64,000 bases of DNA, from assembly GCA_963751275.1 (NCBI GenBank), contig CAVVTZ010000009.1, forward strand, positions 224,001 to 288,000, in the 5' to 3' direction. Under the pieces are notes generated by a model. It made no database searches, was not told the DNA's origin, and saw only the letters and a list, made by a program, of their open reading frames with translations. Every line of letters begins with the position of its first letter. Positions within the stretch are counted from its first letter, which is position 1. Position numbers and translations under genes: made by a program. Positions 4,803-62,625 of this stretch are shown piece after piece. Source of the DNA: an uncultured Gemmatimonadaceae bacterium (lineage in GTDB: Bacteria > Gemmatimonadota > Gemmatimonadetes > Gemmatimonadales > Gemmatimonadaceae).

Positions 4803-4894
4803 ACATGATGTGCATGATGAACGGCGGTGACGCCGTTCATCATGCACATCATGTTCATCCTGTCGATTGTTGTAGTTCGGGAGGCCGGACCCCC
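4763..4894. repeat. Perfect hairpin (family B, 9-nt periodic arms)
   Basis: 64-bp perfect inverted arms around a GTGA loop (4827-4830); arm contains GACAGGATGAACATGATGTGCATGATG; lies between convergent genes. Confidence 0.95.
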
Positions 4895-6380: not shown

Positions 6381-6597
6381 CATCACGGTTCAAGCATGAA
6401 CGGATCAACCGGATGATCCGGATGCGACGGATCGCTCCATGAGGCGCATGAGTGCCCCGTGGCAATGTCGGCTTCGATGATTTGTTGTTCACAACAAAAT
6501 CGAACGCCTGCGTCAGCGCGCCGGCTTCTCTGCGCGCATGGAGCGATCCGCCGCATCCGCCCCATCCGGTTCATCCGTTCATGCTTGAACCGTGATG
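6381..6597. repeat. Imperfect long hairpin with CGGAT 9-mer arms and central AT-rich palindrome
   Basis: CATCACGGTTCAAGCATGAACGGAT...ATCCGTTCATGCTTGAACCGTGATG; TTTGTTGT-TC-ACAACAAA at 6481-6498. Confidence 0.9.
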
Positions 6598-11180: not shown

Positions 11181-11385
11181 CAACAGCTTGTACGCGGATC
11201 GCGCGGAGTCCGCGGATGACGCGGAACGCTCCCGGTGGCGGATCGGCGCATCGAGCGATCGCAAGCGATCGTATTTGTTGTTAACAACAAATTCAGGTCG
11301 TCGCCGCGACTCGTCGGCCGCGGATCGCCGCGCGGAGCACTCCGCGTGTTCGGAGGATTCCGCGTGGTCCGCGTACAAGCCGTTG
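11181..11385. repeat. Imperfect long hairpin with CGCGGA 9-mer arms and central AT-rich palindrome
   Basis: GCTTGTACGCGGA...TCCGCGTACAAGC; perfect ATTTGTTGTTAACAACAAAT at 11273-11292. Confidence 0.9.
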
Positions 11386-17309: not shown

Positions 17310-17381
17310 CGTGCCGCGTGCCTCGTGCCGCGTGCCTCGCCAATCGAGGGGCGCGGCACGAGGCACGCGGCACCAGGCACG
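17310..17381. repeat. Hairpin of 7-nt units (CGTGCC(G/T) / GGCACG), immediately after the stop codon
   Basis: CGTGCCGCGTGCCTCGTGCCGCG...CGCGGCACGAGGCACGCGGCAC. Confidence 0.8.
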
Positions 17382-17461
17382 CGGAACCCCGCACGCTTTT
17401 CTTCACGATTCCTGCACACCTCGCCTCTCCCCGCGAGGCGCGAGGAGCTCCAGCTTCAAGC

Positions 17462-23868: not shown

Positions 23869-23986
23869 CCGGGAGCCGATTGCCGGGAGCCGATGAGGCA
23901 TGACAACACATCCCATTACGACACGGCGCGATGTCGTGATGGGATGTGTCGTCATGCCTCATCGGCTCCCGGCAATCGGCTCCCGG
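23869..23986. repeat. Near-perfect hairpin with 7-nt periodic arms (GCCGGGA/GCCGATT)
   Basis: CCGGGAGCCGATTGCCGGGAGCCGATGAGGCATGAC...GTCATGCCTCATCGGCTCCCGGCAATCGGCTCCCGG. Confidence 0.92.
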
Positions 23987-24084
23987 TATCTTGCCGTGCT
24001 CGGAACAAACCATACGGCCCTTCGTAGTGTCGAACCGGAGTCCCGCCGTTACGAGGCACAAGGCACACGGAACGAGGAACGTAC

Positions 24085-26583: not shown

Positions 26584-26670
26584 CTCGGCGCGCGGCCACA
26601 AACCGTTTCCGTACTTCGACTGTCGAAGCAGAAGCCCGCCCTTTCGCGGATCGAGGCACGAGGAACGCCA

Positions 26671-29166
26671 ATGCGCCAGCTCAAGTTCGCACTGAGAACG
26701 CTGTTCAAGTCCCCCTTCGTGACCGCCGTCGCGATCCTCTCCCTCGCACTGGGGATCGGGGCGAACGCGGCGATCTTCTCGCTCTTCGATCAGCTGCTGC
26801 TCCGCCCGCTCCCGGTGCGCGACCCCGGCGAGCTGGTGGACTTGCACGCGCCCGGCCCGAATCCCGGCTCGCAGTCGTGCGGCTTCGCCGGCGACTGCCA
26901 CGACGTGTTCTCCTATCCGATGTTCCGGGATCTCGAGAAGGGCCAGACCGTGCTCGCGGGACTCGCCGCGCACCGCAACCTGAGCGTGAGCCTCACGTAC
27001 GAGCAGCAACCGATGAGCGGGGCGGGGATGCTCGTGTCGGGCTCCTACTTCCCGACGCTCGGTATCTCGCCGGCGCTCGGCCGCCTGATCGGGCCGGACG
27101 ACGACCGGACCATCGGCGCGCACTTCGTGACCGTGCTCAACTACGACTTCTGGCAATCGCGCTTCGGCGGCGACCCATCGGTCGTCGGCAAGCAGCTCAC
27201 CGTGAATGGGAACCAGTTCACGATCATCGGCGTCGCGCCGCGCGGCTTCGAGGGCACTACGTTGGGCGTGCATCCGCTCGTCTTCGTACCCATCACGATG
27301 CGGCACGTCGTCTCGCCCTGGTTCACGGCGTTCGACAACCGGCAGAACTACTCGATCTATCTATTCGGCCGGATGAAGCCGGGCCTCACCATCAAACAGG
27401 TGGCCGCGGGCCTTAATCACGTCTACCAGCCGATCATCAAGGATGTGGAAGCGCCGCAGCAGGAAGGGATGAGTCCGCAGACGATGGAGAAGTTCAAGGC
27501 GAAGGAGATCGTCGTGACCGCCGGCGCGCGCGGCCAGAGCAGCGTGCACAAGCAGGTCCGCACACCGATGCTCCTGCTGATCGCGATCACGGCCATCGTG
27601 CTGCTCATCGCGTGCGCGAACATCGCGAACCTCCTGCTCGCGCGCGGTGCGAATCGCGCGATGGAGATGGGCGTGCGCCTCGCCCTCGGCGCGAGCCGCC
27701 GCCAGCTGCTCGCGCAGCTGCTCACCGAATCGGTGCTCCTCGCGATCCTTGGCGGCGCCGCCAGTCTCCTCGTCGCCCAATGGACGCTCAGCGCGATCGG
27801 CGCGATCCTTCCGCCCGACGGGATCAAGACGCTCTCCTTCCATCTCGACCCGTCGGTGCTCGCCTTCTCGGGCGCGCTGGCCGTCGTCACCGGATTGCTC
27901 TTCGGGATGTTCCCCGCGCTGCACAGCACGCGCGGCGATCTCATCACCAGCATCCGCGCGGGGGCCGGCCAGATCTCCGGCGCGCGCGCGGCCGCACGCT
28001 TCCGCTCTTCGCTCGTCACCGCCCAGATCGCGCTCTCGATGACGCTCCTCATCGCCGCCGGCCTCTTCATGAAGAGCCTCGCGAACGTGGGGCACGTCGA
28101 CCTCGGCATGCAGGTGGATGACGTGGTGATGCTCGGCATGTCGCCGCAGCGCGCCGGCTATGACAGCGCGCAGATGCAGCAGTTCTACGCCCGCGCCGAG
28201 GAGGCCCTCAAGGCGATCCCCGGCGTCACGACCGTCACGTCGTCGCTCGTGGCGGTGCTGGGCGGCGACAGTTGGGGGAACGACGTGACCGTGCAGGGAT
28301 ACCCGAGCGGCCCCGACGTGGACCAGAACTCCCGCTACAACGAAGTGGGACCCGGATACTTCACGAAGCTCGGCGTGAAGTTCGCCTCCGGCCGCGACTT
28401 CACCGACGCCGATGTGCGGGGCAGCGCGAAGGTGGCGATCGTCAACGAAGCCTTCGCGAAGAAATTCAGGCTGGGCAAGGACGGCGTGGGCAAGTTCATG
28501 GCGCAGGGCCACCACGATTCGCTCGACACCCAGATCGTGGGCGTCATCCGCGACGCGAAGTACAACGGCGTGAAGGACACCGTGATCGCGGTGTACTACG
28601 TGCCGTGGAAGCAGGCCGCCGACGCGACGTACATGTACTACTACGTGCACAGCGCGCTCCCCGCGTCGCAGCTGCTGCGGGACATCCCGGCGGCCATGAA
28701 GCGCTTCGATCCGAACGTCCCCGTGGAAGGCCTCAAGACGATGCCGCAGCAGATCAAGGACAACGTCTTCCTCGACCGGATGATCAGCATCCTCTCGGCC
28801 GCCTTCGCGGTGCTCGCGACGCTGCTCGCCGGCGTGGGCCTTTACGGTGTGCTCGCGTACACCGTGGCGCAGCGCACTCGCGAGATCGGCGTGCGCATGG
28901 CGCTGGGCGCGGACTCCGGCCGCGTGCAGCTGATGGTGATGCGCCAAGTGGGCGTGATGATGCTCATCGGCGGCACGATCGGGCTCGCCGCGGCGTACGG
29001 CCTGGGCCGAGCGGCGGCGTCACTGCTCTATGACCTGAAGAGCTTCGATCCGGTGGTCTTTTCGCTGGCGATCGTGACGCTCGCGCTCGTCGCGAGTGGC
29101 GCCGGCTGGCTGCCCGCGCGCAAGGCATCGAAGGTCGATCCGATCAAGGCGCTGCGGTACGACTAA
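26671..29166 (+). CDS. ABC permease, duplicated MacB/FtsX (ADOP-type), tandem paralog
   Basis: Same motifs; colinear with the previous gene. Confidence 0.95.
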   Translation: MRQLKFALRTLFKSPFVTAVAILSLALGIGANAAIFSLFDQLLLRPLPVRDPGELVDLHAPGPNPGSQSCGFAGDCHDVFSYPMFRDLEKGQTVLAGLAAHRNLSVSLTYEQQPMSGAGMLVSGSYFPTLGISPALGRLIGPDDDRTIGAHFVTVLNYDFWQSRFGGDPSVVGKQLTVNGNQFTIIGVAPRGFEGTTLGVHPLVFVPITMRHVVSPWFTAFDNRQNYSIYLFGRMKPGLTIKQVAAGLNHVYQPIIKDVEAPQQEGMSPQTMEKFKAKEIVVTAGARGQSSVHKQVRTPMLLLIAITAIVLLIACANIANLLLARGANRAMEMGVRLALGASRRQLLAQLLTESVLLAILGGAASLLVAQWTLSAIGAILPPDGIKTLSFHLDPSVLAFSGALAVVTGLLFGMFPALHSTRGDLITSIRAGAGQISGARAAARFRSSLVTAQIALSMTLLIAAGLFMKSLANVGHVDLGMQVDDVVMLGMSPQRAGYDSAQMQQFYARAEEALKAIPGVTTVTSSLVAVLGGDSWGNDVTVQGYPSGPDVDQNSRYNEVGPGYFTKLGVKFASGRDFTDADVRGSAKVAIVNEAFAKKFRLGKDGVGKFMAQGHHDSLDTQIVGVIRDAKYNGVKDTVIAVYYVPWKQAADATYMYYYVHSALPASQLLRDIPAAMKRFDPNVPVEGLKTMPQQIKDNVFLDRMISILSAAFAVLATLLAGVGLYGVLAYTVAQRTREIGVRMALGADSGRVQLMVMRQVGVMMLIGGTIGLAAAYGLGRAAASLLYDLKSFDPVVFSLAIVTLALVASGAGWLPARKASKVDPIKALRYD

Positions 29167-29483: not shown

Positions 29484-29569
29484 CATCATGTGCATCATGT
29501 TGATCCTGTCAAAGCCGTTGTCGTGGCCGTTACAAACTGCCTGACATGATGAACATGATGCACATGATG
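29484..29569. repeat. Family B arms in outward orientation
   Basis: CATCATGTGCATCATGTTGATCCTGTCA...TGACATGATGAACATGATGCACATGATG. Confidence 0.85.
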
Positions 29570-29647
29570 ACAACGATACCAACGAACCGGTCGCCGCTCT
29601 GGAGACGGAGGACGTGAACATCTCCTTGAACACTGCTCGATAGTAGT

Positions 29648-29789
29648 GGCCTCCCGCTGGACAAACGGACTGCGACGTTGGACGTTAGGCCACGTGGAAC
29701 GTGGGGCTGGGAGTGATTCCCACTCTCAGCGACCACCCTCCACGCGGCCCAACGTCCAACGTCGCCCCCCGTTTGTCCAGCAGGAAGCC
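29648..29789. repeat. Hairpin family E copy 1 (GACGTTG units)
   Basis: CTGGACAAACGG..GCGACGTTGGACGTT...AACGTCCAACGTCGC..CCGTTTGTCCAG. Confidence 0.88.
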
Positions 29790-34786: not shown

Positions 34787-34940
34787 GTGGTGGCTTCCCG
34801 CTGGACGAACGAACGGCGACGTTGGACGTTGGCCCGCGTGGAGGCTGGTTGCTGAGAGTGGGGGGCCACTCCTAGTCTCCAAGCGCCACGCGGGCTAACG
34901 TCCAACGTCGCCGTCCGTTGGTCCATCTGGAAGCCACCAC
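34787..34940. repeat. Hairpin family E copy 2 (inverted relative to copy 1)
   Basis: GTGGTGGCTTCC..ACGGCGACGTTGGACGTT...AACGTCCAACGTCGCCGT..GGAAGCCACCAC; interior matches the reverse complement of copy 1. Confidence 0.88.
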
Positions 34941-35709: not shown

Positions 35710-36245
35710 TGCCACCTCGCGTGCCCGCCGCGCTCCGCTGGCTGCTCGCGCTCATGGTGCTTGGCACCAGCCTGCGCCTCTGGGCCGGCATCGCGGTGCC
35801 CGTGCTCGATATCTCGGACAAGGGCCAACTCTGGGCCGGGCTCGGCGCCGGACTCGCGATGGCGTTCATCGCGCGCTATCTCACGCGTGGCCACGAACTC
35901 GGCATGGGCAACGCGCCCCCCTGGCTCGCCCGCTCGATCGTCGCGTTACTCGGGTTCTCACTCGGCGTACTGCTGGGATCCGGATTGTTCCTCGCGGGGA
36001 ACGCGCTGCTCGATCGCGCACCGGTGCAGTGGACGACGTTCACGGTAGAAGGCCATCCGCGCGGGCGGAATGGGAGCCGATTGGAATTGCGGGAATACCT
36101 CGGCGATGGATCGGTGCACGAGGTGTGGATTCCCGACACGCGCGGGACCGCGAATCTGTCCATCGGCGAGAAGGTCGAGCTGCCGATCAGGCCCGGGGCG
36201 TTCGGGTCGCCTTGGATGGATGGAGCGGTGCGGATGGCGCCGTGA
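35706..36245 (+). CDS. Membrane hypothetical protein
   Basis: Three TM segments; overlaps upstream stop. Confidence 0.6.
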   Translation: MMPPRVPAALRWLLALMVLGTSLRLWAGIAVPVLDISDKGQLWAGLGAGLAMAFIARYLTRGHELGMGNAPPWLARSIVALLGFSLGVLLGSGLFLAGNALLDRAPVQWTTFTVEGHPRGRNGSRLELREYLGDGSVHEVWIPDTRGTANLSIGEKVELPIRPGAFGSPWMDGAVRMAP

Positions 36246-36402
36246 TCGGGCAACAGCAACGAACTGCATTTGACAGGATGACAGGATGAACAGGATAACT
36301 GCTGATGACAACTTGAGGCGTGAGCGCCTCAAGTTGTCATCAGCAGTTATCCTGTTCATCCTGTCATCCTGTCAAAGCAGTTCGTTGCTGTTGCCCGATC
36401 AC
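36242..36402. repeat. Near-perfect hairpin (family B)
   Basis: 79/78-nt arms with one bulge, TGAG loop at 36321-36324; TTTGACAGGATGACAGGATGAACAGGAT. Confidence 0.95.
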
Positions 36403-42223: not shown

Positions 42224-42408
42224 GTTGCAGCTAACAGCAAACAGTCACGAGAACCGCACGGCAGGCTACAGTCAACAGTCAACAGGTCACAGAAATCAGA
42301 TCAGGAATGGGCGACTTACATCGCCCGTTCGTGATCCGTTTTCTGTGAGCTGTTGACTGTTGACTGTAGACTGGCAGTCACTCGTGACTGTTTGCTGTTA
42401 GCTGCAGC
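42224..42408. mobile_element. Family A hairpin element copy 1
   Basis: Arms GTTGCAGCTAACAGCAAACAGTCACGAG...CTACAGTCAACAGTCAACAGGTCACAGAAA and its reverse complement. Confidence 0.9.
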
Positions 42409-43500
42409 CTTCCCGGGCATGTGATGTGCAGTCGCCGTTTCGAGCGCCCGGAGCATGATCTCGCGCGCCCTCACCACCCACGCACGATAGTCCGCATTAT
42501 CCAACCGCTCCGGCAACTCCGTCAACCGGTCAAGATCGAACCGCGTATCCCACACTCCTAGCCCCGCCTTCACCCCATCGATCGCATTCAACCGCTGCTC
42601 CACATGCCCTTCCACCGGCACTAGCAGCATCGGCTTCCCAAGATACCCCGCCTCGCACACGGATTCGAACCCCGCCGTGCACACGAGATGTCGGCATTCC
42701 GCCATCATTCGCAGGAACTTCTCGCCGTCCAATTGATGGAACGTGAGCGTCGCGTCATGCTCGAACACCGCCGGCGCGCCGGGTTTGTCGTAGAAACAAT
42801 GCAACACCGTCTCCGGATTCCGCTCGTGCCACGCGATCACGTGCTCGGCGTAGCCATGATTCACCATATAGACCAGCACGAACGCCCCGCCCACGGTCGG
42901 CTCGAGCTCGAACAGCCGCCGCCGGAGCAGTGGCGGCGCGACGATCATCTTGCGGTGTGGCAGGTCCGGCGCCGAATAATGTGACAACGCCAGCCACGTC
43001 GATCGCGCGCCCACGAGACGTGTATACCACTTGAGCCCCCACTGCTGCGCGCGCATCTCGGGCATGCGCGGGAAATCGGGATGTTCCAGCAGGAACTGAT
43101 GCCCGATCGCGATCACCGGCGGCCGCTCACGGTACGCGAGCGCATACACGCCGGTGAGCACTTCGTAGAAATTCAGGATCACATCGGGCTTGAGCTCGCG
43201 CACGAGCGCGGCCAGCGCGCGCACGCTGCGCGCATACTCAGGCAGACGCCGCAGCACCCTCGCGATCGTGGCCGGCATATTCACCGACCGGTTGCCCGTG
43301 TACGCGAACTCCAGCGTCGGGATCACCGTCAACGGCACCGGCATCGCCGAAGCAAAGTAATCCGGCAACTTCCGCTGCCGTCCCATTCCGACCACGACGC
43401 CCACGATCTCGTGCCCCGCGCTCTCCACGATCTCCCGAGCCGCCATCGCCTGGGTCAAGTGACCCCGCCCCTCGCCCTGCACGCAGAAGAGGATTCTCAT
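42316..43500 (-). CDS. Glycosyltransferase (MJ1255/VC2487-like, GT-B)
   Basis: VQGEGRGH, TAGFESVCEA, GHVEQRLNA; C-terminus reads into element A1. Confidence 0.88.
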   Translation of the reverse strand: MRILFCVQGEGRGHLTQAMAAREIVESAGHEIVGVVVGMGRQRKLPDYFASAMPVPLTVIPTLEFAYTGNRSVNMPATIARVLRRLPEYARSVRALAALVRELKPDVILNFYEVLTGVYALAYRERPPVIAIGHQFLLEHPDFPRMPEMRAQQWGLKWYTRLVGARSTWLALSHYSAPDLPHRKMIVAPPLLRRRLFELEPTVGGAFVLVYMVNHGYAEHVIAWHERNPETVLHCFYDKPGAPAVFEHDATLTFHQLDGEKFLRMMAECRHLVCTAGFESVCEAGYLGKPMLLVPVEGHVEQRLNAIDGVKAGLGVWDTRFDLDRLTELPERLDNADYRAWVVRAREIMLRALETATAHHMPGKAAANSKQSRVTASLQSTVNSSQKTDHERAM

Positions 43501-44221: not shown

Positions 44222-44310
44222 GGATGGAATTCAATGGGTCGCGGTCATCATTGCCGCGCGTTTGCGTAACTGTTCGGTCACAACTACCAGCCATCCCCAG
44301 AGCGCGTACG

Positions 44311-44491
44311 GTTGCAGCTAACAGCCAACAGTCACGAGTACCTGCCAGTCTACAGTCAACAGTCAACAGCTCACAGAGAACGGATCACGAATGCGCGATG
44401 TACATCGCGCGCTCGTGGTCTGCTTTCTGTGACCTGTTGACTGTTGACTGTTGACTGGCCGTCACTCGTGACTGTTGGCTGTTAGCTGCAA
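44311..44491. mobile_element. Family A hairpin element copy 2
   Basis: Same arm consensus; inner stem ATCACGAATGCGCGATG. Confidence 0.9.
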
Positions 44492-45021: not shown

Positions 45022-45158
45022 CACCGCCGGCAGCCGTCATGGTGGTTCGGCTCGCGGCGGTGTTTATGAGTTTCACCGTGTGGCGAGTGGGGGGTCGTGT
45101 GGCGGCTGCCGGCTGTCCCATTAACTGCGTACTACCTACGGATCACCAGGACTGGAAG

Positions 45159-45343
45159 GTTGCAGCTAACAGCAAACAGTCACGAGTGACTGCCAGTCTA
45201 CAGTCAACAGTCAACAGGTCACAGAAGACGGATCACGAGCGCGCGAAGTGCGTCGCGCATTCGTGATCCGTTTTCTGTGACCTGTTGACTGTTGACTGTT
45301 GACTGCCGCGCCGTTCTCGTGACTGTTTGCTGTTAGCTGCAAC
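45159..45343. mobile_element. Family A hairpin element copy 3
   Basis: GTTGCAGCTAACAGC...GCTGTTAGCTGCAAC. Confidence 0.9.
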
Positions 45344-47362: not shown

Positions 47363-47403
47363 GGAGTGTTCCCTTGGGGGAGAGTACGAGGGGGCCTATG
47401 GTC

Positions 47404-47580
47404 GCAGTAAACAGCAAACAGTCACAAGTGACCGCCAGTCTACAGTCAACAGTCAACAGCTCACAGAGAACTGACTGCGGACGGGCGAAAACATCAATGC
47501 CCCCGCGGATCCGTTCTCTGTGAGCTGTTGACTGTTGACTGTAGACTGGCAGGTACTCGTGACTGTTTGCTGTCTACCGC
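47404..47580. mobile_element. Family A hairpin element copy 4
   Basis: GCAGTAAACAGCAAACAGTCAC...GTGACTGTTTGCTGTCTACCGC. Confidence 0.9.
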
Positions 47581-47590
47581 AGCGTTGAGA

Positions 47591-50095
47591 TCACTCAGAG
47601 CGCAGTGCCGTCAGCGGATCCACCTTCCCAGCCCGTCTCGCCGGCACCAAGCTCGCCACCGCCGCAACGCCAAGCAGTACCACTCCCACTCCCACGAACA
47701 CCACCGGATCATACGGCGATACCTGGAACAACATCGGCCTCACCCACTTCCCAGCCACCATCGCGATCCCACCCCCGATCACCACTCCCACGCTCGCCAA
47801 TATCATCCCTTCACCCAACACCAATCTCACAACGTCGGAAACCTGCGCTCCCAGCGCCACCCGCACTCCGAGTTCGTGCGTCCGCTGCGCGACATTGTAC
47901 GAGATCACGGAATACAGCCCGATCGCCGCCAACACCAATGCCAACACCCCGAACACCGTGAACATCGCCGCCCCCAGCCGCCACGATTGCATCTCGCGCC
48001 CGACGATGTCCGCGAACGGCACGACATTCACATACGACGCCCCAGGCATTTGCGCCTGCAATCGCTTGCGCAGCGTTTCACCATCCCCCGCCCGCGCGCC
48101 TTTCATGCGAACCAGGATCGAAAAATGACCCGATACGTTCGCTTGCGCAGCGCTAATGTAGTAGAAATATCCTGGATCGTCCGACAGACTTCGCGATTTC
48201 GTATTCTCCGCGATCCCCACCACATACGTGCACGGCATCGTGTCGGCGTCCAGCTTCATGCACTGCCCGAGCGCATCCGCGTGCGGCCATAAGATCTTCG
48301 CCATCGACTCGCTCACCACCGCCGACCTCGGCGCTCCCGCGATGTCGGCGGCGGTGATCCCGCGGCCGCGGATGATGCGCGTCCCCACCGTGGCGAAGAA
48401 GTCCGGGGTCACCGCATTGAGATCGAACTCGCCCAGCTTGTCCACCGAATCGATCCCGGCCACGTGGAGATCGGTGTTCCACATGCTCCAGAAGGGGAGC
48501 GTCGCGCTGAGCGCGGCATGCTCTACGCCGGGCATCGCCTGCGCCTGCTCGAGCAGGTTGTTCGTCAACTGCGTGTAGTGCGCGCTGTCGAGCTTCACGC
48601 CGCGCATGATCGGATTCACGACCTGCACCAGCGACGCATCGTAACCCAGCGGCATCGAATTCACGTTCCGCAGCGATCGCACGAACAATCCCGCGCCCAC
48701 CAGCAGCACCACGCTCAGCGCCCCCTGGAATACCAGCAGCCCGATGCGCAGCCGGGAGCGATGCACCGCGCCCTCGCGCGCGCCCGCCTTGAGATCCACC
48801 GTGAGATCCGCGCTCCGCGTCTGGAAGATCGGCGCGAGTCCCGTGAGCAATCCCGCCGTGAGCGCCGCGATGCCGGCGAAGACGAGCACGCGCGGATCGC
48901 TGATCACCGCCGCGCCTTCGGTCTTGGGCAGCATGGTCGCCCGCAGGATCGCGCCGCCGAACTGCGCGAATACCACCCCCACCACGCCGCCGAGCACGGC
49001 GAGCAGCACGCTCTCGGTGAGGAGCTGCGCCGCGAGACGCCCGCGGCTCACGCCCAGCGCCAGCCGCACCGCCACTTCCCGCTTGCGGCGCAGCGCGCGC
49101 GCCAGCAGCAGGTTCGCGACGTTCGCGCACGCGATGAGCCACACCACGATGGCGACGCCGGCGATCCAGGTCGCCACCTTCGCTTCGCTCGACTCACGCG
49201 GGCCCCGCTCGGCCAGGATGGATGCGACGATCGCGTGCGGCTTCGCGAGCGCCGGCGGCGTCTCATTGTGATCCGCCGCGGCCTGCGCGGCATATTCGCG
49301 CTGGAACGCGCCGCTCACATCCGCCGTCGCCGCGTCGAGCGAGACCCCCGGCTTCCGCTCGGCGATCATCTGCGTCCACTGCCAGTGATAGGTCGATTCC
49401 CACGATTCGCCGCGCAGGCGGAGATTCTCCCCCAGTTCGTGCCCGTACGCCGAGATGGGGATGAAGGCCGCGGGGGGCTGCGACGGCCATGTTCCGACGA
49501 AGCCCGCGGGCGTGACGCCGATGATGGTATAGCGCGTGGCGCCGATCTGGATCGGCTGCCCGATGGCGTCCGCGCGTCCGCCGTACTGTGTTTGCCACAG
49601 ACCATAGCTCAGCACGGCCACCGGGGTTCCAATGGGCGCGACGTCTTCTGCGGGGCTGAAGTATCGCCCGGCCACGGGGGGCGCGGTGAAGAAGCCGAAG
49701 AAGGCCGCACTGACCGCGGCGACATCCATCTCGCGCGCATCGAGCCCTTCGCCGATCGCGACCTTGCGCTCGAAGGTGGCCGCCGTCCGCTCGAAGGAAT
49801 GGGTCTCTTTCGTGAGATCCATGATGCGCGCATAGGGCATGGTGCCGCCCGCGAATTCCTTCCCGCGATAGCTGGTGGCGAGATAGATCCTATGCGTCCG
49901 CTCCGGCGCCGTGAGCATGGGCGGCGGGCGGAAGAGCAATTGGTCTACTATTGAGAAGATCGCGGCGTTTGCCCCGATTCCGAGCGCGAGCGTGAGGACG
50001 ACGGCGAGCGTGAAGCCGGGTTTGTTGCGGAGGCCGCGGAGGGCGTAGGTGAGGTCTTGTTTGATCGCTTCCCAGCGGTTTTCGGTGGTGGGCAT
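47591..50095 (-). CDS. ABC permease, ADOP-type
   Basis: LALGIGANAAIFS, IACANVANLLLAR, QRTHELGVRVALGA, DPLTALRSE. Confidence 0.95.
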   Translation of the reverse strand: MPTTENRWEAIKQDLTYALRGLRNKPGFTLAVVLTLALGIGANAAIFSIVDQLLFRPPPMLTAPERTHRIYLATSYRGKEFAGGTMPYARIMDLTKETHSFERTAATFERKVAIGEGLDAREMDVAAVSAAFFGFFTAPPVAGRYFSPAEDVAPIGTPVAVLSYGLWQTQYGGRADAIGQPIQIGATRYTIIGVTPAGFVGTWPSQPPAAFIPISAYGHELGENLRLRGESWESTYHWQWTQMIAERKPGVSLDAATADVSGAFQREYAAQAAADHNETPPALAKPHAIVASILAERGPRESSEAKVATWIAGVAIVVWLIACANVANLLLARALRRKREVAVRLALGVSRGRLAAQLLTESVLLAVLGGVVGVVFAQFGGAILRATMLPKTEGAAVISDPRVLVFAGIAALTAGLLTGLAPIFQTRSADLTVDLKAGAREGAVHRSRLRIGLLVFQGALSVVLLVGAGLFVRSLRNVNSMPLGYDASLVQVVNPIMRGVKLDSAHYTQLTNNLLEQAQAMPGVEHAALSATLPFWSMWNTDLHVAGIDSVDKLGEFDLNAVTPDFFATVGTRIIRGRGITAADIAGAPRSAVVSESMAKILWPHADALGQCMKLDADTMPCTYVVGIAENTKSRSLSDDPGYFYYISAAQANVSGHFSILVRMKGARAGDGETLRKRLQAQMPGASYVNVVPFADIVGREMQSWRLGAAMFTVFGVLALVLAAIGLYSVISYNVAQRTHELGVRVALGAQVSDVVRLVLGEGMILASVGVVIGGGIAMVAGKWVRPMLFQVSPYDPVVFVGVGVVLLGVAAVASLVPARRAGKVDPLTALRSE

Positions 50096-50197
50096 CGTTC
50101 GGGCTCCGCGTGGCGGGTCGGCTGGGGGGGCGAGGGGTCAAGATTGTGACACAATTCTGGCTTGGACGGTTGGCGTCCTACAGACTATCACCAGGCC

Positions 50198-50388
50198 GGG
50201 AAGATTGCAGTAAACAGCAAACAGTCACGAGTACCTGCCAGTCTACAGTCAACAGTCAACAGCTCACAGAAAACGATCCAGCGCGCAGGAGAACCTACTG
50301 CGCAGGGGCCTGCCTTCTGTGAGCTGTTGACTGTTGACTGTAGACTGGCGGTCACTCGTGACTGTTTGCTGTTTACTGCAACCTTCCC
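50198..50388. mobile_element. Family A hairpin element copy 5
   Basis: GGGAAGATTGCAGTAAACAGC...GCTGTTTACTGCAACCTTCCC. Confidence 0.9.
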
Positions 50389-50450
50389 CCGGCAAGTGAT
50401 GCAGGGTAGTGTCGTACCAACCCTCCCCCACCCGGGTGTGTCAAACATCC

Positions 50451-52925
50451 ATGCCCTCCCTCCGCTCCCTCGCCCGCAACCGCGCCTTCACCGCCACCGC
50501 GACCCTCACGCTGGCCCTCGGCATGGGCGCGACCACTGCGATCTTCACTCTCATTAAGAGAGTCGTCCTCGACCCACTCCCGTATCCGCACCAGGAACAA
50601 TTAGTCCGACTCACCAACCCCATGCCCGGCGTCGGACCGAATGTCGAATGGTCCCTCAGCACCGCACAATATTTCTACTTCACCGAACACGCGAAAACGC
50701 TCGCGAAGATCGGCCTCTTCCGCGAAGGCGGACTGAATTTCGCCTCCAGCACCCCAGGCGCCGAACCCCAGCGCGTCCACTCCGCCCGCGTCACCGCCTC
50801 CATGATGGACCTCCTGGGCGCTCGTGCGGTCCTGGGCCGGATCATCAATCAGAATGATGACATTCCCGGCGCCCCGCCCGTCGCCATGCTCTCGCGCGAT
50901 TTTTGGCGCCGGCAATTCGGCTCCGACCCATCGGTAGTTGGCACGACCATCCGCCTCGATGACGAGCCCGTCCAGATCATCGGCATCATGGCCCCCGGCA
51001 TCGAACTCCCCCTCGAACGCGGGCAGGCTGTCGGCGTCGCGAGCGATGTCTGGATCCCCCGCCGCCTCGATCCCGCGGGCCCGTTCTACAATAACCACGT
51101 CAACCCGGGCATCGCCCTCCTCGCCCCCGGCGCCACGCTCGCCTCGGTGAGCGCCGAGCTCGATCAGCTGACCCAGCAATTCCCCGCGGCTTTTCCCGTG
51201 GCGTATTCAGAGAATTTCATCAAGAACTTCCACACTCGGCCCACTCCGCTGAAAGAATACGTCGTGGGCGCCGCCGCCAAGAATCTCTGGATCCTGTTCG
51301 GCGCCGTCGCGCTCGTTCTCCTCATCGCCTGCGCGAACGTCGTCAATCTCTTCCTCGTCCGCTTCGAGGCAAGGCGCCGAGAATTCGCCATTCGTGCGGC
51401 ATTAGGCGCCGGCTGGCGCAATGTCGCCATCGATTCATTCCGCGAATCATTGATCCTCACGCTCGCCGGCTCCGTCCTCGCGCTCGGGATCGGCTACGCC
51501 GGCACCCGCTGGCTCGCGGCCCTCGCCCCGTCCAGCCTCCCCCGTCTCGCCGACCTCCAGCTCGACGCCGGTGTCTTCGCGTTCACGATCGTCCTCGCGA
51601 TCGTCATCGCCGCCTTCCTCGCCCTCGTGCCCGTTCTCCAAACGAATCGCCCCGACGCCCTCGGCGCACTCGGCGACAGCAGCCGTACCGCATCATCGAA
51701 CCTCCAACGTCGAAGTTTCCGCAACGTTTTGGTTGTTTCCCAGGTCGCCCTTGCATTGGTGTTGGTGATCGGTGCCGGATTATTGCTCGAATCATTCCAC
51801 CGTCTGAGCTCCGTCAGCCCCGGCATCGACGCACGGAACACGCTCACCGTCGAGATCTATCCGTCCTCGCAACGCTACCCCAGCATGGAAAAGCTGTGGC
51901 AATTCTATGCGCAGGTGAGCGAGAAAGTGCGCGCGATCCCCGGCATCGCCTCGGCCGGTTTCACCGAGGAATTGCCCTTCAGCGGCGATTTCGGATGCAC
52001 CGTGCAAGGATTCGAGGATGCCGGTGTCTATGAGCAGCTGAAACGCGCACACCAGACGACGTGCGCCGGCCAGGAGACGACGTCGCCGGGCTATTTCGCT
52101 GCAATGGGCATTCCGGTGCTGAAGGGTAGGGAATTCACTCCGAACGATAATGATGCGCCCACCACCGGCGCCGTGATCGTGAGCAAGACATTCGCCGACC
52201 GCTTCTGGCCCGGTGAGGATCCGATCGGGAAGGGCACGGGCCCGAACGGCCGCAATACGCCACCGTTCTATCATGTCATTGGCGTTGTCGGCAATGTGCA
52301 TGTCTCGAGTCTCGACGGCGAGATGGCGAATGCGATTTATTATCCCCTCGTCGCGATCCCGCACACAGGGCGATGGTTCGATGGCGAAATGGCGCTCGTC
52401 ATCAGAACATCGCGCGGCAGTCCGGAGAGTTACTTGAATGCCGTCCGCCGAGCGGTGGCGGAGGTCGATCCCACCGTTCCGATCGCGAACGCGGTTGAGA
52501 TGGAGAGCGTCGTTGCGAAGTCGATGAGCCGGCTTACGTTCACCATGACCTTGCTCGCGATCGCCGGCGTGACGGCACTATTGCTGGCGGCGATCGGGTT
52601 GTACGGCTTGATCGCCTACATTGTCGAACGGCGCACGAACGAGCTCGGCGTTCGATTGGCGCTGGGAGCGCAGCCCGGCCAAGTGGAAGGATTGGTCGTG
52701 GGCGGGGCGATGAGGCTTACTATAGTAGGACTGGCGATCGGGGCGGTGGTGGCGCTTGGGTTCTCGCGGCTGCTGGCGTCGTTGCTTTACGGAATTGCAC
52801 CGTGGGATCTTGCGGCATATCTCGGCGCGATCGGGGTGCTGGGAGTGGTCGCGATCGTGGCGGCGTGGGTGCCGGCGAGGAGGGCGGGGAAGATCGATCC
52901 TGCCGTTGCCTTGCGGGCTGAGTGA
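50451..52925 (+). CDS. ABC permease, ADOP-type
   Basis: LALGMGATTAIF, LLIACANVVNL, RRTNELGVRLALGA, DPAVALRAE. Confidence 0.95.
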   Translation: MPSLRSLARNRAFTATATLTLALGMGATTAIFTLIKRVVLDPLPYPHQEQLVRLTNPMPGVGPNVEWSLSTAQYFYFTEHAKTLAKIGLFREGGLNFASSTPGAEPQRVHSARVTASMMDLLGARAVLGRIINQNDDIPGAPPVAMLSRDFWRRQFGSDPSVVGTTIRLDDEPVQIIGIMAPGIELPLERGQAVGVASDVWIPRRLDPAGPFYNNHVNPGIALLAPGATLASVSAELDQLTQQFPAAFPVAYSENFIKNFHTRPTPLKEYVVGAAAKNLWILFGAVALVLLIACANVVNLFLVRFEARRREFAIRAALGAGWRNVAIDSFRESLILTLAGSVLALGIGYAGTRWLAALAPSSLPRLADLQLDAGVFAFTIVLAIVIAAFLALVPVLQTNRPDALGALGDSSRTASSNLQRRSFRNVLVVSQVALALVLVIGAGLLLESFHRLSSVSPGIDARNTLTVEIYPSSQRYPSMEKLWQFYAQVSEKVRAIPGIASAGFTEELPFSGDFGCTVQGFEDAGVYEQLKRAHQTTCAGQETTSPGYFAAMGIPVLKGREFTPNDNDAPTTGAVIVSKTFADRFWPGEDPIGKGTGPNGRNTPPFYHVIGVVGNVHVSSLDGEMANAIYYPLVAIPHTGRWFDGEMALVIRTSRGSPESYLNAVRRAVAEVDPTVPIANAVEMESVVAKSMSRLTFTMTLLAIAGVTALLLAAIGLYGLIAYIVERRTNELGVRLALGAQPGQVEGLVVGGAMRLTIVGLAIGAVVALGFSRLLASLLYGIAPWDLAAYLGAIGVLGVVAIVAAWVPARRAGKIDPAVALRAE

Positions 52926-52940: not shown

Positions 52941-53149
52941 CACCAGACCGGTAAGGTTGCAGCTAACAGCGAACAGTCACGAGTGACCGCCAGTCTACAG
53001 TCAACAGTCAACAGCTCACAGAAAACGATCCAACGCGACGGAGATACTATTGCGCACGGGCCGGATTTCTGTGAGCTGTCGACTGTTGACTGTAGACTGG
53101 CAGGTACTCGTGACTGTTGGCTGTTTACTGCAATCTTCCCGGTCTGGTG
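52941..53149. mobile_element. Family A hairpin element copy 6 (longest paired ends)
   Basis: CACCAGACCGGTAAGGTTGCAG...CTGCAATCTTCCCGGTCTGGTG. Confidence 0.9.
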
Positions 53150-53707: not shown

Positions 53708-53884
53708 TTGCAGCTAACAGCAAACAGTCACGAGTACCCGCCAGTCTACAGTCAACAGTCAACAGCTCACAGAAAGAAATTCAGCGCGACCGATAGATGG
53801 TTGCGCATGGGCCAGATTTCTGTGAGCTGTTGACTGTTGACTGTAGACTGGCGGTAACTCGTGACTGTTTGCTGTTAGCTGCAA
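53708..53884. mobile_element. Family A hairpin element copy 7
   Basis: TTGCAGCTAACAGCAAACAGTCACGAG...CTCGTGACTGTTTGCTGTTAGCTGCAA. Confidence 0.9.
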
Positions 53885-53986
53885 CCTTCCCTCGGGCCGG
53901 ACTCCGTGCCGTTGATGGTGCTTGCGGTCCCGGGGAAGATGAAGCCACTTTCCTGAGTCCAACTCCTCTCAGGATCGCACCAGCCC

Positions 53987-56203: not shown

Positions 56204-56397
56204 ACGGCCCCGCACGATCTCTCGCGAGGGGCCGTTCTCAACTCCCGACTCCCGATACCCGAGTCGTGCTACCCGTTCACCACTTTCCGCGCCGCGATGA
56301 AGATCGGGACGACAGTCCCGTCCCTCGGCAAGATGTTCTGCTGTTTGTATGAACAGGGCTTCCCCTCGTAGTTTCTGAACACCAGCTCGTCGTCGGT
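56204..56397 (-). pseudogene. Diverged duplicate of the kamA 3' end plus terminator
   Basis: Aligns to 57017-57210; encodes DELVFRNYEGKPCSYKQQNILPRDGTVVPIFIAARKVVNG*. Confidence 0.9.
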
Positions 56398-57014: not shown

Positions 57015-57050
57015 CAACGGCCCCGCGCGAGAGCTCGCGCGGGGCCGTTG
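57015..57050. terminator. Bidirectional hairpin between convergent genes
   Basis: CAACGGCCCCGCGCGA-GAGC-TCGCGCGGGGCCGTTG. Confidence 0.7.
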
Positions 57051-57081
57051 TCGATTCCTGACTCCCGATACCCGGGTCGTG

Positions 57082-58198
57082 CTACCCGTTCGCCACTTTC
57101 CTCGCCGCGATCTCGATCGGCACGATGGTCCCGTCCTTCGGCAGGATCTTCGGCTGCTTGTATGAATACTGCTTCCCCTCGTAGTTCCTGAACACCACTT
57201 CGTCCTCGTTCATATACTCGAGGTACTCGGGGAGCAGCGGAACTTTGCCGCCGCCTCCCGGAGAGTCGATCACGAAGGCCGGGATCGCCAACCCGCTCGT
57301 CCACCCGCGCAGCGCCTTCATGATCTCGAGCCCGGTCTGCACCATGGTCCGGAAATGCTCGCCGCCGGCCACCTGGTCGGCCATGTAGAGATAGTAGGGC
57401 CGCACGCGCGCCTTCAGCAGCTCGTGCATCAGCTTCATCATGATCTTGGGATCGTCATTGATCCCGCGCAGCAGCACGGTGTGCGCGCCAAGCACGACTC
57501 CCGCCTTCGACAACCGGTCCAGCGACGCCACGGTGTTCGGGGTCAGTTCGCTGGGATGATTGAAGTGGGTGTTCATATAGATCGGGATGATACTTCTGCA
57601 CCATCTCGCAGAATTCCGGCGTGATCCGCTCGGGCAAGTGCGCGGTGATCCTGCTCCCGATGCGAATGATCTCGACATGCGGGATCTCGCGCAGCTTCTG
57701 GAAGATGTGCTCCAGCCGCCGGTCCGAGAGCATCATCGGATCGCCGCCTGACAAGATCACGTCGCGCACCTCCGGATGATTCCGGATGTACTCGAACGCC
57801 GAGTCATACTGATTGAGCGGGATCTTCTCCGGATCGCCCACCTTCCGCCGCCGCGTGCAGAAGCGGCAATAGGTCGCGCACACGGGGCTCACGAGGAACA
57901 ACACGCGATCCGGATACCGGTGCGTGATGTTCGGCACCGGACTGTCGCCGTCCTCGTCCAGGCTGTCGATCACGCCATCGGTGATCTGCAGCTCCTCGAC
58001 GCTCGGGATGTATTGCTTCCAGATCGGGTCGTCCACTTCCTTGATCAGGTCCAGCACCTCGGGCGTGATCCGCATCTGGAAATTGTCGAACGCCGGCGCC
58101 AGCGCCTCCACGTCGATGTTCTCGCGGCCGAACTTCTCCGCGAGCTTCTCGAGGGTCGCGATGCTGTCGTCCTTGATGATCTTCTGCCAGTCGCTCAT
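57082..58198 (-). CDS. kamA: KamA family radical SAM (lysine 2,3-aminomutase-like), frameshift near 57590
   Basis: THRYPDRVL, CATYCRFCTRRR, LSGGDP, HFNHP, PGGGGK. Confidence 0.92.
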
Positions 58199-58723: not shown

Positions 58724-59811
58724 CCCTGGGCGACGAAGAGATCCAGTGCGGCGCGGTCTTCCGGCCTGGCGGTCACGCCGCTCAGCACTTGCGCGCGCCT
58801 GCCACTGCTCCTCGGTCGACCGCGTGCGGCGCTTGAGCGCGCTCTCGCACACGGCATGGATCATGTCGGCATACTCGAGACCGGCCACGCGCGCCATGCG
58901 CGCCAAGCCGGCGTCGGGTGAGATATCGGGATTCGAATTCGACCTCGAGGATCCACGGCTTCCCCGCGCGGTCGATGCGCAGGTCCACGCGGCCGTATCC
59001 CTCGCCGCCGGCCAGGCGCCACGCCTTGAGCGCGATCCGCTTCAGCTCCTCGCTCTGCTCCTTCGGCATCTTCGCGGGACACTGCGGCACGCTGCCCAGA
59101 TCCTCGTCGCAGCCGGTCTCCCACTTGCTCTTGTAACTGACGATCCGCCACATCCCGCGCGGCATGCCGTCGAACAGGATCTCGGCGACGGGCAGCGCCT
59201 GGTCGCCCAGCACGCCGACATTCACCTCGCGGCCATCGACATACTTCTGCACGAGGATCTCGTCCCAACGCTCGTGCATCGCGGTCACGCGCTCGGAAGA
59301 GCTGGCGCGCATTGCGCACCACCGACCGCTGCTCCACGCCGATCGACGCATCCTCGGCACTCGGCTTCACGATCGCCGGATAGCCCACGTGCGGCATCGG
59401 GTCGCCCGGATGCACCAGCGCGAAGCGCGGGATGGGGAGGCCGGCGCGGTCGAGCAGGCTGTTCACGACATGCTTCCGCAAGCACATCGACGTCGTCCAG
59501 CTCGAGCTGCCGGTGTACGGCACGCCGATCACTTCCACGGCGCTGATGACGCTCGGCTCCAGCTCGGCGACGCCGTCCACGCCTTCGCACAGATTGAACA
59601 TGAGATCGAACTTCCCGCGGCGGACGCGCTCCACCCAGCGGCCGTCGGGATTCACCGGCACGCGCACGACCGTGTTGCCGTCGGGCGCGAGCGCGTTCTC
59701 CACGGCCTCGACGGTGTCGAGGATGGCCAAGTCCGGGCTCGCGCCGAGCGCGGAAAGGCCGTCGAAGAGAACGCCGATCTTCATGGTCAGTGGTCCTTGC
59801 TGTGCGCTCAA
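58720..59811 (-). CDS. D-Ala-D-Ala ligase-like ATP-grasp protein 1 (frameshifted)
   Basis: FNLCEG, PYTGS, IVKPSAEDASIG, GREVNV, YGRVDLR, ILEV. Confidence 0.88.
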
Positions 59812-61094
59812 CCGAGCGCGGCGGTGCGCCGGTTGCGTCGCACGGCCTTGCCGGTGAGGCGAACGTTCTGCCGCTCCGCCGCGTGGCGGAGGCAGGCCTG
59901 GATGAGCTGGTCGTAATTCATGCCCGCCGCGCGCGCCGCCTTGGGGAAGCAGGAATTATCGCGCGGGTCCGGCAGGATGCCGGGGAGGGGATTCACTTCG
60001 ACGACGTTCGGCGTGCCATCGGCGTCGAGCCGGATGTCGATGCGCGACCAATCGCGGCAGCCGAGCACGAAGTAGGCGGCGAGGGCCACCTGTTCGATGC
60101 GGGACTGCAGCGCGCTATCGATTTGCGCGGGGCACTCGAAGATCTCGAGCGGATTCTCCGGGCGGTCCCAGAGCCACTTGGCCTCGAAGCCGTAGACGGG
60201 CAGCGCGCCCTCGGGGAGAGCGGCGAAATTCATGCCGACGATGGGCAGGACGCGCGCGCCCGAGCCATTGCCGAGCACGGCGCAGGTGAACTCGGCGCCG
60301 GGGAGCCATTCTTCGACGAGCACGGGCTGTTGATAGTGCTCGAGCAGGAAGAGCGTCTGTTCCGCGAGCTCAGCGGGGGTGCGGCAGAAATTCCTTTCCG
60401 TGATGCCCTTGGAAGAACCTTCGTGCACGGGCTTCACGAAAAGCGGCAGACGGAGCCGGCCATTGACGCCGCGCAGGCGCCGCGTGGTGACGCGCTCGAG
60501 CAGCGCCGTCACTTCATGCGCGGCCCGCACGAGGACAAAAGGGGCGGTGGGGACGCGGTTGTAGGCGAGATATTCTTTCGTGCGCGCCTTATCGAGTCCC
60601 ATCGCGAGCGTGAAGGGATCGGAGCCGGAGTAGGGAATGCCGTAGAATTCGCAGATCGCGGGCACGTGGGCCTCGCGATTCGCGCCATTCATCCCTTCGG
60701 CGATGTTGAAGACGATATCGGGGTTGGCGACGCGGAGTTTCTCGGGGAATTCTGCCGTGGCCTCGAGCCTGATGACTTCACCCACACCTTCCAGCGCGCG
60801 CTCGACCGCATCGATCGTCTCCGCGCAATCCCACTCGGCGTATTTATCGTTGACCGTGCTGAGGTGGTGGGCGGCGACTTCGGGAGTCGAGAATTGCGAG
60901 TCGGGGAGGGACTCGGCGACTCGCGAGCGGCGCGACCATTTGCGGCGGCGGCTTGAGATCTCTTCGGCGGGACGCGGGGAGTCGGCGTCGGCTGAGAGGC
61001 GAAGAGATGCGGAGTCGGGTTTTTGATTGTAGGCGAAGCCTATTCGACTCATCTGCTCCGGGGGAACGAGCTGAACTGCTCGTGAGATGTTCAC
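59808..61094 (-). CDS. D-Ala-D-Ala ligase-like ATP-grasp protein 2
   Basis: FNIAEG, VKPVHEGSSKG, SRIDIR, EVNPLPG; start 61094 (leaderless) or 61052. Confidence 0.92.
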   Translation of the reverse strand: MNISRAVQLVPPEQMSRIGFAYNQKPDSASLRLSADADSPRPAEEISSRRRKWSRRSRVAESLPDSQFSTPEVAAHHLSTVNDKYAEWDCAETIDAVERALEGVGEVIRLEATAEFPEKLRVANPDIVFNIAEGMNGANREAHVPAICEFYGIPYSGSDPFTLAMGLDKARTKEYLAYNRVPTAPFVLVRAAHEVTALLERVTTRRLRGVNGRLRLPLFVKPVHEGSSKGITERNFCRTPAELAEQTLFLLEHYQQPVLVEEWLPGAEFTCAVLGNGSGARVLPIVGMNFAALPEGALPVYGFEAKWLWDRPENPLEIFECPAQIDSALQSRIEQVALAAYFVLGCRDWSRIDIRLDADGTPNVVEVNPLPGILPDPRDNSCFPKAARAAGMNYDQLIQACLRHAAERQNVRLTGKAVRRNRRTAALG

Positions 61095-61129: not shown

Positions 61130-61194
61130 TGATTTTTTTGAGATACTTTTTGGCGACGACGACACTGCTTACTGCATCACTTGCGCATCCGTGA

Positions 61195-61829
61195 CATGAA
61201 GTCAACAGTCAACAGTGATCCAGTCGAACTGCAGTCGACAGTCATCGGTCGACAGCTCATCAGAAAACGGTGAGGTGTGCGTTCATGTGATGATGACGAA
61301 TGAATGGCGCCGAAGTAGCGTGGGGCATGTCGATCAGAAGTCATCGAGACCTCATCGTGTGGCAGCGTTCCATGGAGTACGCGGCGGAGGTGCATCGCAT
61401 GACGAAGCGTATTTCCGCCACGAGAGGGCGCTGACTTGCGGAAGCAACTCCTCCGTGCGGCGATGTCCGTGCTCAGCGAATATCGCGGAGGGCGCAGGTC
61501 GCATGCACCGTGGCGACTACCTGCGATTCATTTCGATCGCGCGCGGCTCCTTGCTCGAGTCCGACTCTCATGTCGCGATGGCGGTCACCTTCGGCTACCT
61601 GCGCGAAGAGGACGTGAGACGCGGGGAGCAATTGAGCGGCGACATCCTCCGTATGCTCACCAAGCTCGCGAGCGTACTCGCGCGCCAATCCCACGCTCGC
61701 CTCCCGACAATGTGAACAAGGGCAGGAGCCACTGCGCCTCCCGCCCTCATGGAGCCGATTCTCTGATGACTGTTGACCGATGACTGTCGACTGCAGTGTA
61801 CTGGATCACTGTTGACTGATGACTTCATG
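61195..61829. mobile_element. Inverted-repeat-bounded element carrying a four-helix-bundle gene
   Basis: ~72-bp terminal IRs (61195-61270 and 61755-61829), CATGAAGTCAACAGTCAACAGTGATCCAGT...; homologous to family A arms. Confidence 0.85.
61327..61715 (+). CDS. Four-helix-bundle protein (23S rRNA IVS protein / Avd-like), frameshifted
   Basis: MSIRSHRDLIVWQRSM...KQLLRAAMSV..NIAEGAGR...YLRFISIARGSLLE pieced from three frames. Confidence 0.88.
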
Positions 61830-61872
61830 CTTGGTCGTGCAAGTGCCGAACTCGGGGGATCGCCGTTCGCCG

Positions 61873-62625
61873 TTAGACCTTGTGATAGAGGATCCGTGCC
61901 GCCTCACGACGGTCCTCGGCTTGATACACCTCGAAATCCCCAAAAAACCCCGGCGCGATTCCCTGGAGCACGCGCAGCACCGCGATCGCACATCTCCGAA
62001 TCTCCTGCTCCGCCCCCTCACCAGATCGCAGCTCAAGCATAGTTCTCCAAGCCCGAGCATTCCCCGTCACCACGATCTTCGTCTCCGTCGCATTCGGCAA
62101 CACCGCCCTCGCCGCCTCCCGCGCCATCTTCCGCCGATGGACCTTGTCCGCGATCCATCCATACCGCTCCATCAACGCCTCGACCATCTCGATATACGCC
62201 GCCAGCGCCGACTCCATCTGCGCCTTCCACGCCGCCTCGAGCGCCGCATCCCCGATCACCGCCGGCGGGATCACGAAATTCGCGTCCGTCTCGTCCACGT
62301 AGCGCTGGGAGAGCTGTGAGTACGCGAACCCCGCCCAATGCCGCACGAGCTCGTGGGTCAAAGATCTACTCACGCCTTCGAGCAGCAAGGAGTAGTTGGC
62401 ATGCTCGAGCACCGACCCATGCCCCTGTTTCTTGATGTTCTCGAGATAATCTCGCGTCGTCCGGTTCGCCGGATTCTTCTGACTCATATAACACAACCGC
62501 CCCGCGAACTCCGCGAGGCGTTCACCGTCAGTACTCTCCCCCATCCAATGGACCGGCAGATGCGCCGGTTCTGAGAACGCCGGTTGCGACAGTACGCTGA
62601 TCACCGGCTCAGCAAAGTATTTCAT
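61873..62625 (-). CDS. thyX: FAD-dependent thymidylate synthase
   Basis: GHGSVLEH, SRSLTHELVRH, SQLSQRYV, AREAARAVLP, GNARAW, EIR. Confidence 0.92.
   Translation of the reverse strand: MKYFAEPVISVLSQPAFSEPAHLPVHWMGESTDGERLAEFAGRLCYMSQKNPANRTTRDYLENIKKQGHGSVLEHANYSLLLEGVSRSLTHELVRHWAGFAYSQLSQRYVDETDANFVIPPAVIGDAALEAAWKAQMESALAAYIEMVEALMERYGWIADKVHRRKMAREAARAVLPNATETKIVVTGNARAWRTMLELRSGEGAEQEIRRCAIAVLRVLQGIAPGFFGDFEVYQAEDRREAARILYHKV

Follow-up and report, generated by a model that had tools for sequence, protein, structure and literature searches.

A four-helix-bundle gene in heptamer-repeat arms and its gene-less hairpins: a likely undescribed selfish repeat system in Gemmatimonadaceae

Among the closest described systems is REPIN-RAYT, in which, as set out in the available parts of the reports, a single-copy, site-stable gene is framed by its own repeat, and genome-wide gene-less inverted doublets occupy extragenic positions, with several parallel gene-repeat pairs and with singlets as remnants (10.1101/2021.07.10.451892; PMC3116915). 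The locus described here shares these features. Its partner gene, however, encodes a four-helix-bundle protein and not an HUH Y1 transposase, its arms are 70-110 nt arrays of 7-nt units and not short palindromes, and replacement at old sites dominates. To our knowledge the four-helix-bundle protein has no catalytic activity. The same protein family (S23p) is encoded in Coxiella burnetii by the ORF-bearing 23S rRNA intervening sequence (IVS), where the gene also lies in the loop of terminal inverted repeats with tandem heptamers at the 5′ side; in the accessible text of that report origin and mobility are unexplained there too (PMC4990558). Unlike the 23S rRNA IVS, the elements here are located between protein-coding genes, have hundreds of gene-less derivatives and carry longer arms. 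TIRtrons and related TIR families likewise have a gene in long terminal inverted repeats that also form dispersed dimers, but TIRtron genes are Y1 tyrosine transposases, and the words "helix" and "hepta" are absent from the part of the paper at hand (PMC3733652). Intergenic heptamer arrays, often in convergent inverted pairs and without a link to insertion sequences, are further known as the GGGAATC repeats of Xanthomonas and Nostoc. Unlike the arrays here, these are read as G-quadruplex candidates in the available text, which names no partner gene and contains none of the words "S23", "helix" and "intervening" (PMC4692102). Xanthomonas, one source of these repeats, is also that of 2GSC, the closest solved structure to our protein. 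Finally, according to the accessible part of its description, the non-catalytic protein Avd of diversity-generating retroelements (DGRs) is a pentameric four-helix-bundle barrel which binds a stem-loop with all five protomers (10.1101/2023.10.23.563531). For our protein the pentamer is suggested by homology only and, unlike in DGRs, there is here no Avd sequence match, no reverse transcriptase in the five genomes searched and no TR/VR pair.

Bacterial MITEs are short non-coding elements whose terminal inverted repeats are related to those of a gene-carrying element. The gene-less hairpins resemble them in their terminal inverted repeats, their lack of coding capacity and their multiple copies, and differ by the absence of a target duplication and of a cognate transposase, by their old shared sites and by their rewritten arms. 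A literature search, with most subscription papers and preprint supplements outside its scope, returned no description of a gene-plus-hairpin-family system; the relevant terms are absent from the accessible main text of a genomic-language-model preprint (10.64898/2026.10.21.760802), and the part of the REPORTH paper at hand makes no statement on site reuse. We conclude that the system is real, widespread and apparently unpublished, and that it joins a REPIN-like repeat population to an IVS-type cassette.

The window, that is, the whole stretch of 64,000 nucleotides analysed here, comprises positions 224,001-288,000 of contig C9 in the assembly G000 (83% complete). The gene-carrying cassette and its neighbours are arranged as follows.

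59808..61052, minus strand: D-Ala-D-Ala-ligase-like (ddl-like) ATP-grasp neighbour gene, score below all curated cut-offs
61163..61194, plus strand: left outer extension, with a near-match to the terminal motif and a CACTTGC word pairing with 61839-61845
61195..61270, plus strand: left heptamer arm, type B, about nine AG-ending units
61327..61715, plus strand: gene for a four-helix-bundle protein (PF05635/TIGR02436), frameshifted by 1 nt near 61403 and again near 61475; an intact 127-aa orthologue in G002 and G005
61756..61829, minus strand: right heptamer arm, also of type B; its complementarity with the left arm is 88%
61830..61875, minus strand: right outer extension, with the terminal AACGGC motif (61869-61874) overlapping the thyX stop codon (61873-61875)
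61873..62619, minus strand: neighbour gene thyX

By folding, the arm pair is predicted to form a single long stem. The element reaches about 35-45 nt past the named arms, on the right side up to the thyX stop codon, and is located outside rRNA, between two genes which are both on the opposite strand. The C-terminal frame of the window gene matches the PF05635 profile with 50.8 bits (cut-off 33.8); for TIGR02436 (cut-off 24) the score is 50.5 with the window part and 104.8 with the G002 orthologue. The intact orthologue has as its closest solved relative PDB 2GSC (E 4e-24, five chains), a protein given as a homopentamer in the accessible part of PMC4990558, and by this homology the cassette protein may be a pentamer as well. 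Avd did not appear among the PDB hits of the intact orthologue at E<=1 or among its NCBIfam hits. Rfam returned no family at gathering score between 42 and 62.5 kb of the window, only sub-threshold miRNA-type hairpin matches, and a promoter scan found nothing.

The frameshifts in the gene had been put down to possible decay or read error. A three-way alignment with G002 and G005 over 6.1 kb of coding DNA shows 14 out-of-frame indels that are private to G000, and 11 of these fall within housekeeping genes nearby; the corresponding numbers are 8 for G005 and 3 for G002. At the G000 rate at least two indels in 390 bases are expected with a probability of 0.17. Since the two frameshifts fit the assembly's own indel rate, read error suffices to explain both of them and decay, although also possible, is not needed. 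Between 57082 and 61052 a radical-SAM gene is accompanied by fragments of GNAT type and by a tandem pair of ddl-like genes, and several of these are split by single-base indels private to G000. The segments 56204-56395 and 57017-57208 form an 84% direct repeat of the 3′ end of the radical-SAM (kamA-like) gene; relatives are not alike at this place, and G005 has about 22 kb more there, as at an integration site.

The gene-less hairpins of family A in the window are listed together with a nonamer-type hairpin.

36242..36402, no strand: nonamer-type hairpin; the junction holds a family-A hairpin in G002 and G005, a whole-element replacement
42224..42409, no strand: family-A hairpin 1, without a gene; site shared by G002 and G005
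44310..44491, no strand: family-A hairpin 2, without a gene; site shared by G002 and G005
45158..45343, no strand: family-A hairpin 3, without a gene; site shared by G002 and G005
47400..47573, no strand: family-A hairpin 4, without a gene; site shared by G002 and G005
50205..50383, no strand: family-A hairpin 5, without a gene; site shared by G002 and G005
52955..53133, no strand: family-A hairpin 6, without a gene; site shared by G002 and G005
53708..53886, no strand: family-A hairpin 7, without a gene; site shared by G002 and G005

The original prediction held that the left gene arm is colinear with the arm of these hairpins and that only some 40-50 nt separate the arms of each copy. Both statements are borne out. 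The seven hairpins have 43-47 nt between their arms, which are 74-75% identical to the gene arms, and for each arm the alignment score was reached by none of 1000 seven-base-block shuffles, none of 1000 unit shuffles and none of 500 base shuffles. A chance likeness of heptamer arrays is thereby ruled out. In contrast, the idea that the hairpins are deletion derivatives of the cassette found no support, as their loops have no clear homology to the cassette interior (score 21.3 versus 18.8 ± 2.8 after shuffling); loops as remnants of the interior are thus not convincing. The MITE-style movement that had been envisaged is not supported either, because no target duplication is seen, the seven hairpins occupy the same sites in two relatives and turnover takes place mostly at occupied sites. 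Being present at the same sites in G002 and G005, the seven are not recent hops. An integron cassette array was also considered and rejected, since the genes between the hairpins point both ways and their order is kept in both relatives. Tandem and dispersed MacB/FtsX-type permease paralogues at 24069-28944 and 47591-52925 appear ordinary.

Family A, with 17 compact copies, is one among 23 hairpin clusters in the G000 assembly, which together with 18 singletons contain 319 compact hairpin loci. A search with arm profiles produced 952 hits, which fall into 481 loci: 277 are matched pairs, 124 single arms, 69 multiples, 5 chimeric pairs and 6 mixed. Same-family pairs have the inward orientation of the cassette in 277 of the 303 loci with two arms. 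All six PF05635 genes of G000 lie, as judged by eye, in inverted arms that match gene-less families, and by the same means five further families of G000 match the arms of PF05635 genes in congeners. The expectation that other TIGR02436-type genes would have inverted repeats, with arm types recurring in gene-less hairpins, was therefore justified. PF05635 is found in 35 of 41 related genomes, and inverted arms (score >=40) flank 51 of 60 PF05635 loci from such genomes. Among 80 metagenome loci listed, 62 were testable and 26 of these have inverted arms, 18 with period 7, compared with 8 of 507 control genes. Two genomes, G012 and G055 (unpublished), contribute to tallies only, and none of the claims depends on them. 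At C7:943262-943597 and C7:952096-952431 of G000, GxxExxY (PF13366) genes lie within nonamer inverted repeats with the shared end motif. Two of the three GxxExxY genes are so placed, in arms like those of 58 nonamer hairpins (clusters 2 and 3).

The link between the gene and family A is seen more clearly in the congeners. The thyX-ddl region is present in four of the five (the G004 assembly is without it), and all four have an intact gene at the junction. In G002 and G005 the cassette arms belong to family A (83-88% identity to the window's hairpins), and so do those of a 90% identical metagenome copy. The cassette arms of G000 are of type B, which is related to family A, and their closest gene-less relatives are not the seven hairpins but two type-B hairpins outside the window (C13:35.9k and C9:295.7k; 77-84%). 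The proposed association of gene and family A is supported by the family-A arms of the intact orthologues. The proteins of G001 and G003 are 47-51% identical to that of G002 and their heptamers differ too. With the orthologues at this one junction four different types of arm are found. For the G001 arm there are 64 matches in G001 and for the G003 arm 31 in G003, in either case with none in four other genomes; the window arm has 31-34 matches in G002, G004 and G005 and none in G001 and G003. Each congener amplifies its own arm type, and the thyX-ddl locus is a ready specificity matrix of four orthologous proteins and four arm types, each amplified only in its own genome.

In other genera, where the best 29 of 111 matches (29 genomes) were compared, no gene of this kind follows thyX. 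In 20 of these genomes a ddl-like gene is next after thyX, and at least three have, by eye, a different heptamer hairpin directly after the thyX stop. The junction is therefore a recurrent target. In one genome (G096, L126:1014-1475) a MarR-like gene, identified by eye, is found between thyX and the ddl-like gene. The G000 gene shows 71-74% identity, its neighbours 86-91%, and a horizontal swap of the gene is plausible on this sequence comparison. Silent divergence (19 of 40 fourfold sites) does not prove such a swap, because it is matched in cassettes which kept their arm type (24/53, 27/61 and 34/58); this argument failed its control. Only where the proteins are more than about 55% identical does arm similarity track their identity; for pairs further apart the two are uncorrelated (Mantel 513/2000), so that no recognition code is shown, and a general covariation of protein and arm is not significant below 70% identity.

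How the hairpins change can be followed by comparing G000 with 860 kb of G005 at 84% identity. Out of 72 mapped G000 sites, 34 have the same arm group in G005, 14 another group, 12 an unassigned hairpin and 12 none; an earlier, finer split was 27/22/23. Hairpin sites of contig C9 have a hairpin in G005 in 48 of 65 cases, compared with 4 of 152 hairpin-free junctions of at least 80 nt. G002 and G005 (93.7% identity) are unlike at 12 of 37 and at 11 of 42 sites. At one junction G000 has the gene where G005 has a gene-less element of the same family, so that a pair of filled and empty sites, which the original prediction proposed to compare, does exist. Another cassette lies the other way round between its arms than in three relatives; across four genomes it has three arm types. 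Where unrelated arm groups are swapped, as at 36242..36402, whole replacement has occurred, because the loops are unrelated.

The arms themselves are also rewritten. At 10 shared sites orthologous arms are 84-85% and paralogous arms 85-87% identical, compared with 66% and 49-52% for the loops, and one arm position is C in 19 of 20 arms of G000 and in 6 of 28 arms of G005, copies which are not independent. Such alignments indicate that arms of the A/B group change in concert. In G004, which is 86-94% identical per segment to G005 and 78-87% to G000, type B is found in 11 of 11 hairpins examined (one arm unclassified), and 8 of 9 sites common to G004 and G000 are B in G004 and A in G000. The inner loop is clearly inherited at only 2 of these 8 sites (mean 0.57 versus a background of 0.48), and most A-to-B changes could therefore be whole replacements. 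In the G000 group 15 of 19 pairs are A and 2 are B, one of the latter where G005 has A. As the gene has type-B arms and 15 of 19 paired hairpins are still type A, turnover seems to be in progress, and G000 is likely caught midway from A to B arms. At the L399/L400 border of G005 (C1, about 769 kb) an inside-out family-A hairpin has its arms back to back; G000 and G004 have a normal type-B hairpin there.

A driver of known type was sought with seven enzyme families in genomes of the genus, which are 63-89% complete; with this completeness absence means not found in those searched. No Y1_Tnp (PF01797, RAYT) and no IS110 was found in six genomes, and no RVT_1 (PF00078) reverse transcriptase in five, the one-contig G005 included. 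DDE_1 is present in two of six (one weak match in G000) and rve in three of six, neither in G005; tyrosine recombinases are found in all six and Ku in four. An autonomous insertion sequence with matching ends was not found in this search by enzyme family, and the gene-carrying form encodes PF05635. A known insertion sequence, RAYT, IS110 or reverse transcriptase as the driver was thus not found in the genomes searched, in agreement with the original prediction.

The small gene and its gene-less hairpins likely make up an undescribed selfish repeat system which spreads by copying over old copies. We tentatively prefer, stopping short of calling it probable, a two-part system of the REPIN-RAYT kind, in which a non-enzymatic pentamer likely binds the arms and host repair copies them. 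A rather doubtful alternative is true non-autonomous transposition in the manner of MITEs or REPINs. An unrecognised trans enzyme, for example the GxxExxY PD-(D/E)XK nuclease of the nonamer cassettes, would cut at AAC(T/G)(G/A)C ends and move all families, favouring 3′ gene ends and existing hairpins, with the four-helix-bundle protein as an adaptor. This end motif indeed occurs in all 12 arm groups, those with nonamers included, and at 234 of 634 arm ends compared with a background of 5%, but it was chosen after viewing the data and is missing from most ends. It is genus-specific (18 of 46 cassette ends within the genus, 1 of 32 and 3 of 46 outside). The hairpin-sized gains or losses seen between close relatives and the GxxExxY genes within nonamer inverted repeats would also suit such an enzyme. 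However, the longest direct repeats at 78 elements are no longer than for mismatched pairs (4.4 versus 4.4 nt), although short duplications could have decayed because the nearest comparison is at 93.7% identity. Junction alignments between relatives are ragged, and arms change at old sites with the loop kept, which argues against transposition. Less likely still is retro-mobility, which we regard as very improbable: a reverse transcriptase would receive the hairpin RNA from the pentamer, as it does from Avd in DGRs, and the cDNA would be pasted at 3′ gene ends. Avd and S23-type proteins are kin in fold, Avd binds a stem-loop according to the accessible part of 10.1101/2023.10.23.563531, and the hairpins sit behind stop codons; but the missing Avd match and the lack of a reverse transcriptase in the five genomes searched count against this route, and adenine-specific variation was not noticed by eye in the arm alignment.

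It is unlikely, too, that the hairpins are a domesticated 3′-end regulation, serving as terminators, mRNA stabilisers or RNase III sites with the protein as a TRAP-like ring, so that ordinary gene conversion would keep them homogeneous and selection for some hairpin at the site would explain its reuse. Their placement would fit well. By our own crude gene calls a stop codon is no more than 25 nt away from 182 of 266 hairpins, whereas 12 of 202 have a start nearby, and 112 of 314 are at convergent junctions, compared with 439 of 3020 junctions overall; selection against promoter and start-site insertions may contribute to this. Of the 383 genes followed by an arm, 76 have their stop codon fused to the end motif, compared with 47 of 2427 others, and TAA stops are enriched among the former (118 of 383 versus 232 of 2427). 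The cassette is kept at the thyX-ddl junction in five genomes down to 78% identity, and in Coxiella the IVS stem is cut by RNase III, as stated in the available part of PMC4990558. A regulatory role is at odds, however, with unrelated families replacing one another, with many sites lost in close relatives, with the gene missing behind thyX in other genera (29 genomes, the best 29 of 111 matches) and with at least 12 parallel arm groups in a single genome, which is more like selfish proliferation. Nor is there a G.U bias on the transcribed strand (304 versus 274). The left and right arms of one hairpin (85-88%) are no more alike than any two arms; for both reasons the arms fit a binding motif more than selected pairing.

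For copying over by host repair, we suggest that the replication of the elements could proceed in these steps. The system would consist of a single-copy four-helix-bundle gene in heptamer arms and of genome-wide gene-less hairpins with the same arms. The putative pentamer would read the AG-ending units of its own arm type at 7-nt spacing on extruded hairpin DNA or on RNA and bring two arms together. Hairpin-induced breaks or stalled forks could then be repaired from an ectopic copy in a gene-conversion-like "copy-over", and the targets overwritten would be hairpins already behind stop codons. Such copy-over would rewrite arms in place, swap whole elements at reused sites, convert filled to empty forms and possibly flip the interior. 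The five chimeric pairs and the 124 single arms among 481 loci were counted in its favour; the chimeric pairs are rare and may be double insertions instead. New insertions at naive sites also occur, and copy-over alone is therefore insufficient.

A bolder version of copy-over is possible, though we lean against it. A selfish element would spread without its own transposase or reverse transcriptase, by a non-catalytic ring protein which reads an arm of 7-nt period and steers host repair so that competing hairpins at gene ends are overwritten. Within one genome a dozen pairs of gene and arm, together with nonamer/GxxExxY pairs that have the same end motif, would compete for the same sites; as by-products there would arise rRNA intervening sequences and those heptamer repeats of bacteria that lack an explanation. 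PF05635, whose function is unknown although the family is very common, gains a testable function from the system. ORF-bearing rRNA intervening sequences and the heptamer repeats over-represented in bacteria could have originated in it, and it is an example of REPIN-like repeat populations without a recognisable mobilising enzyme. If copy-over is true, the elements would also reshape 3′ gene ends and often supply the stop codon.

Some minor observations concern other hairpins. A 15-base pattern scan of the genome contigs gave mostly chance matches. Two chimeric hairpins (C9:180.55-180.71k and C9:185.92-186.04k) combine a left arm of another heptamer family with a right arm of the family-A group. 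At C13:7.09-7.27k and C13:7.88-7.96k arms are found around or beside terminator-like short hairpins. Other periodic hairpins of the window are at 6381-6597, 11181-11385, 17311-17384, 23869-23986, 29484-29789 and 34787-34940. A nonamer-type hairpin at 4763-4894, absent in G005, has perfect 64-bp arms which include locus-specific outer sequence; this suggests fold-back copying or a very recent event.
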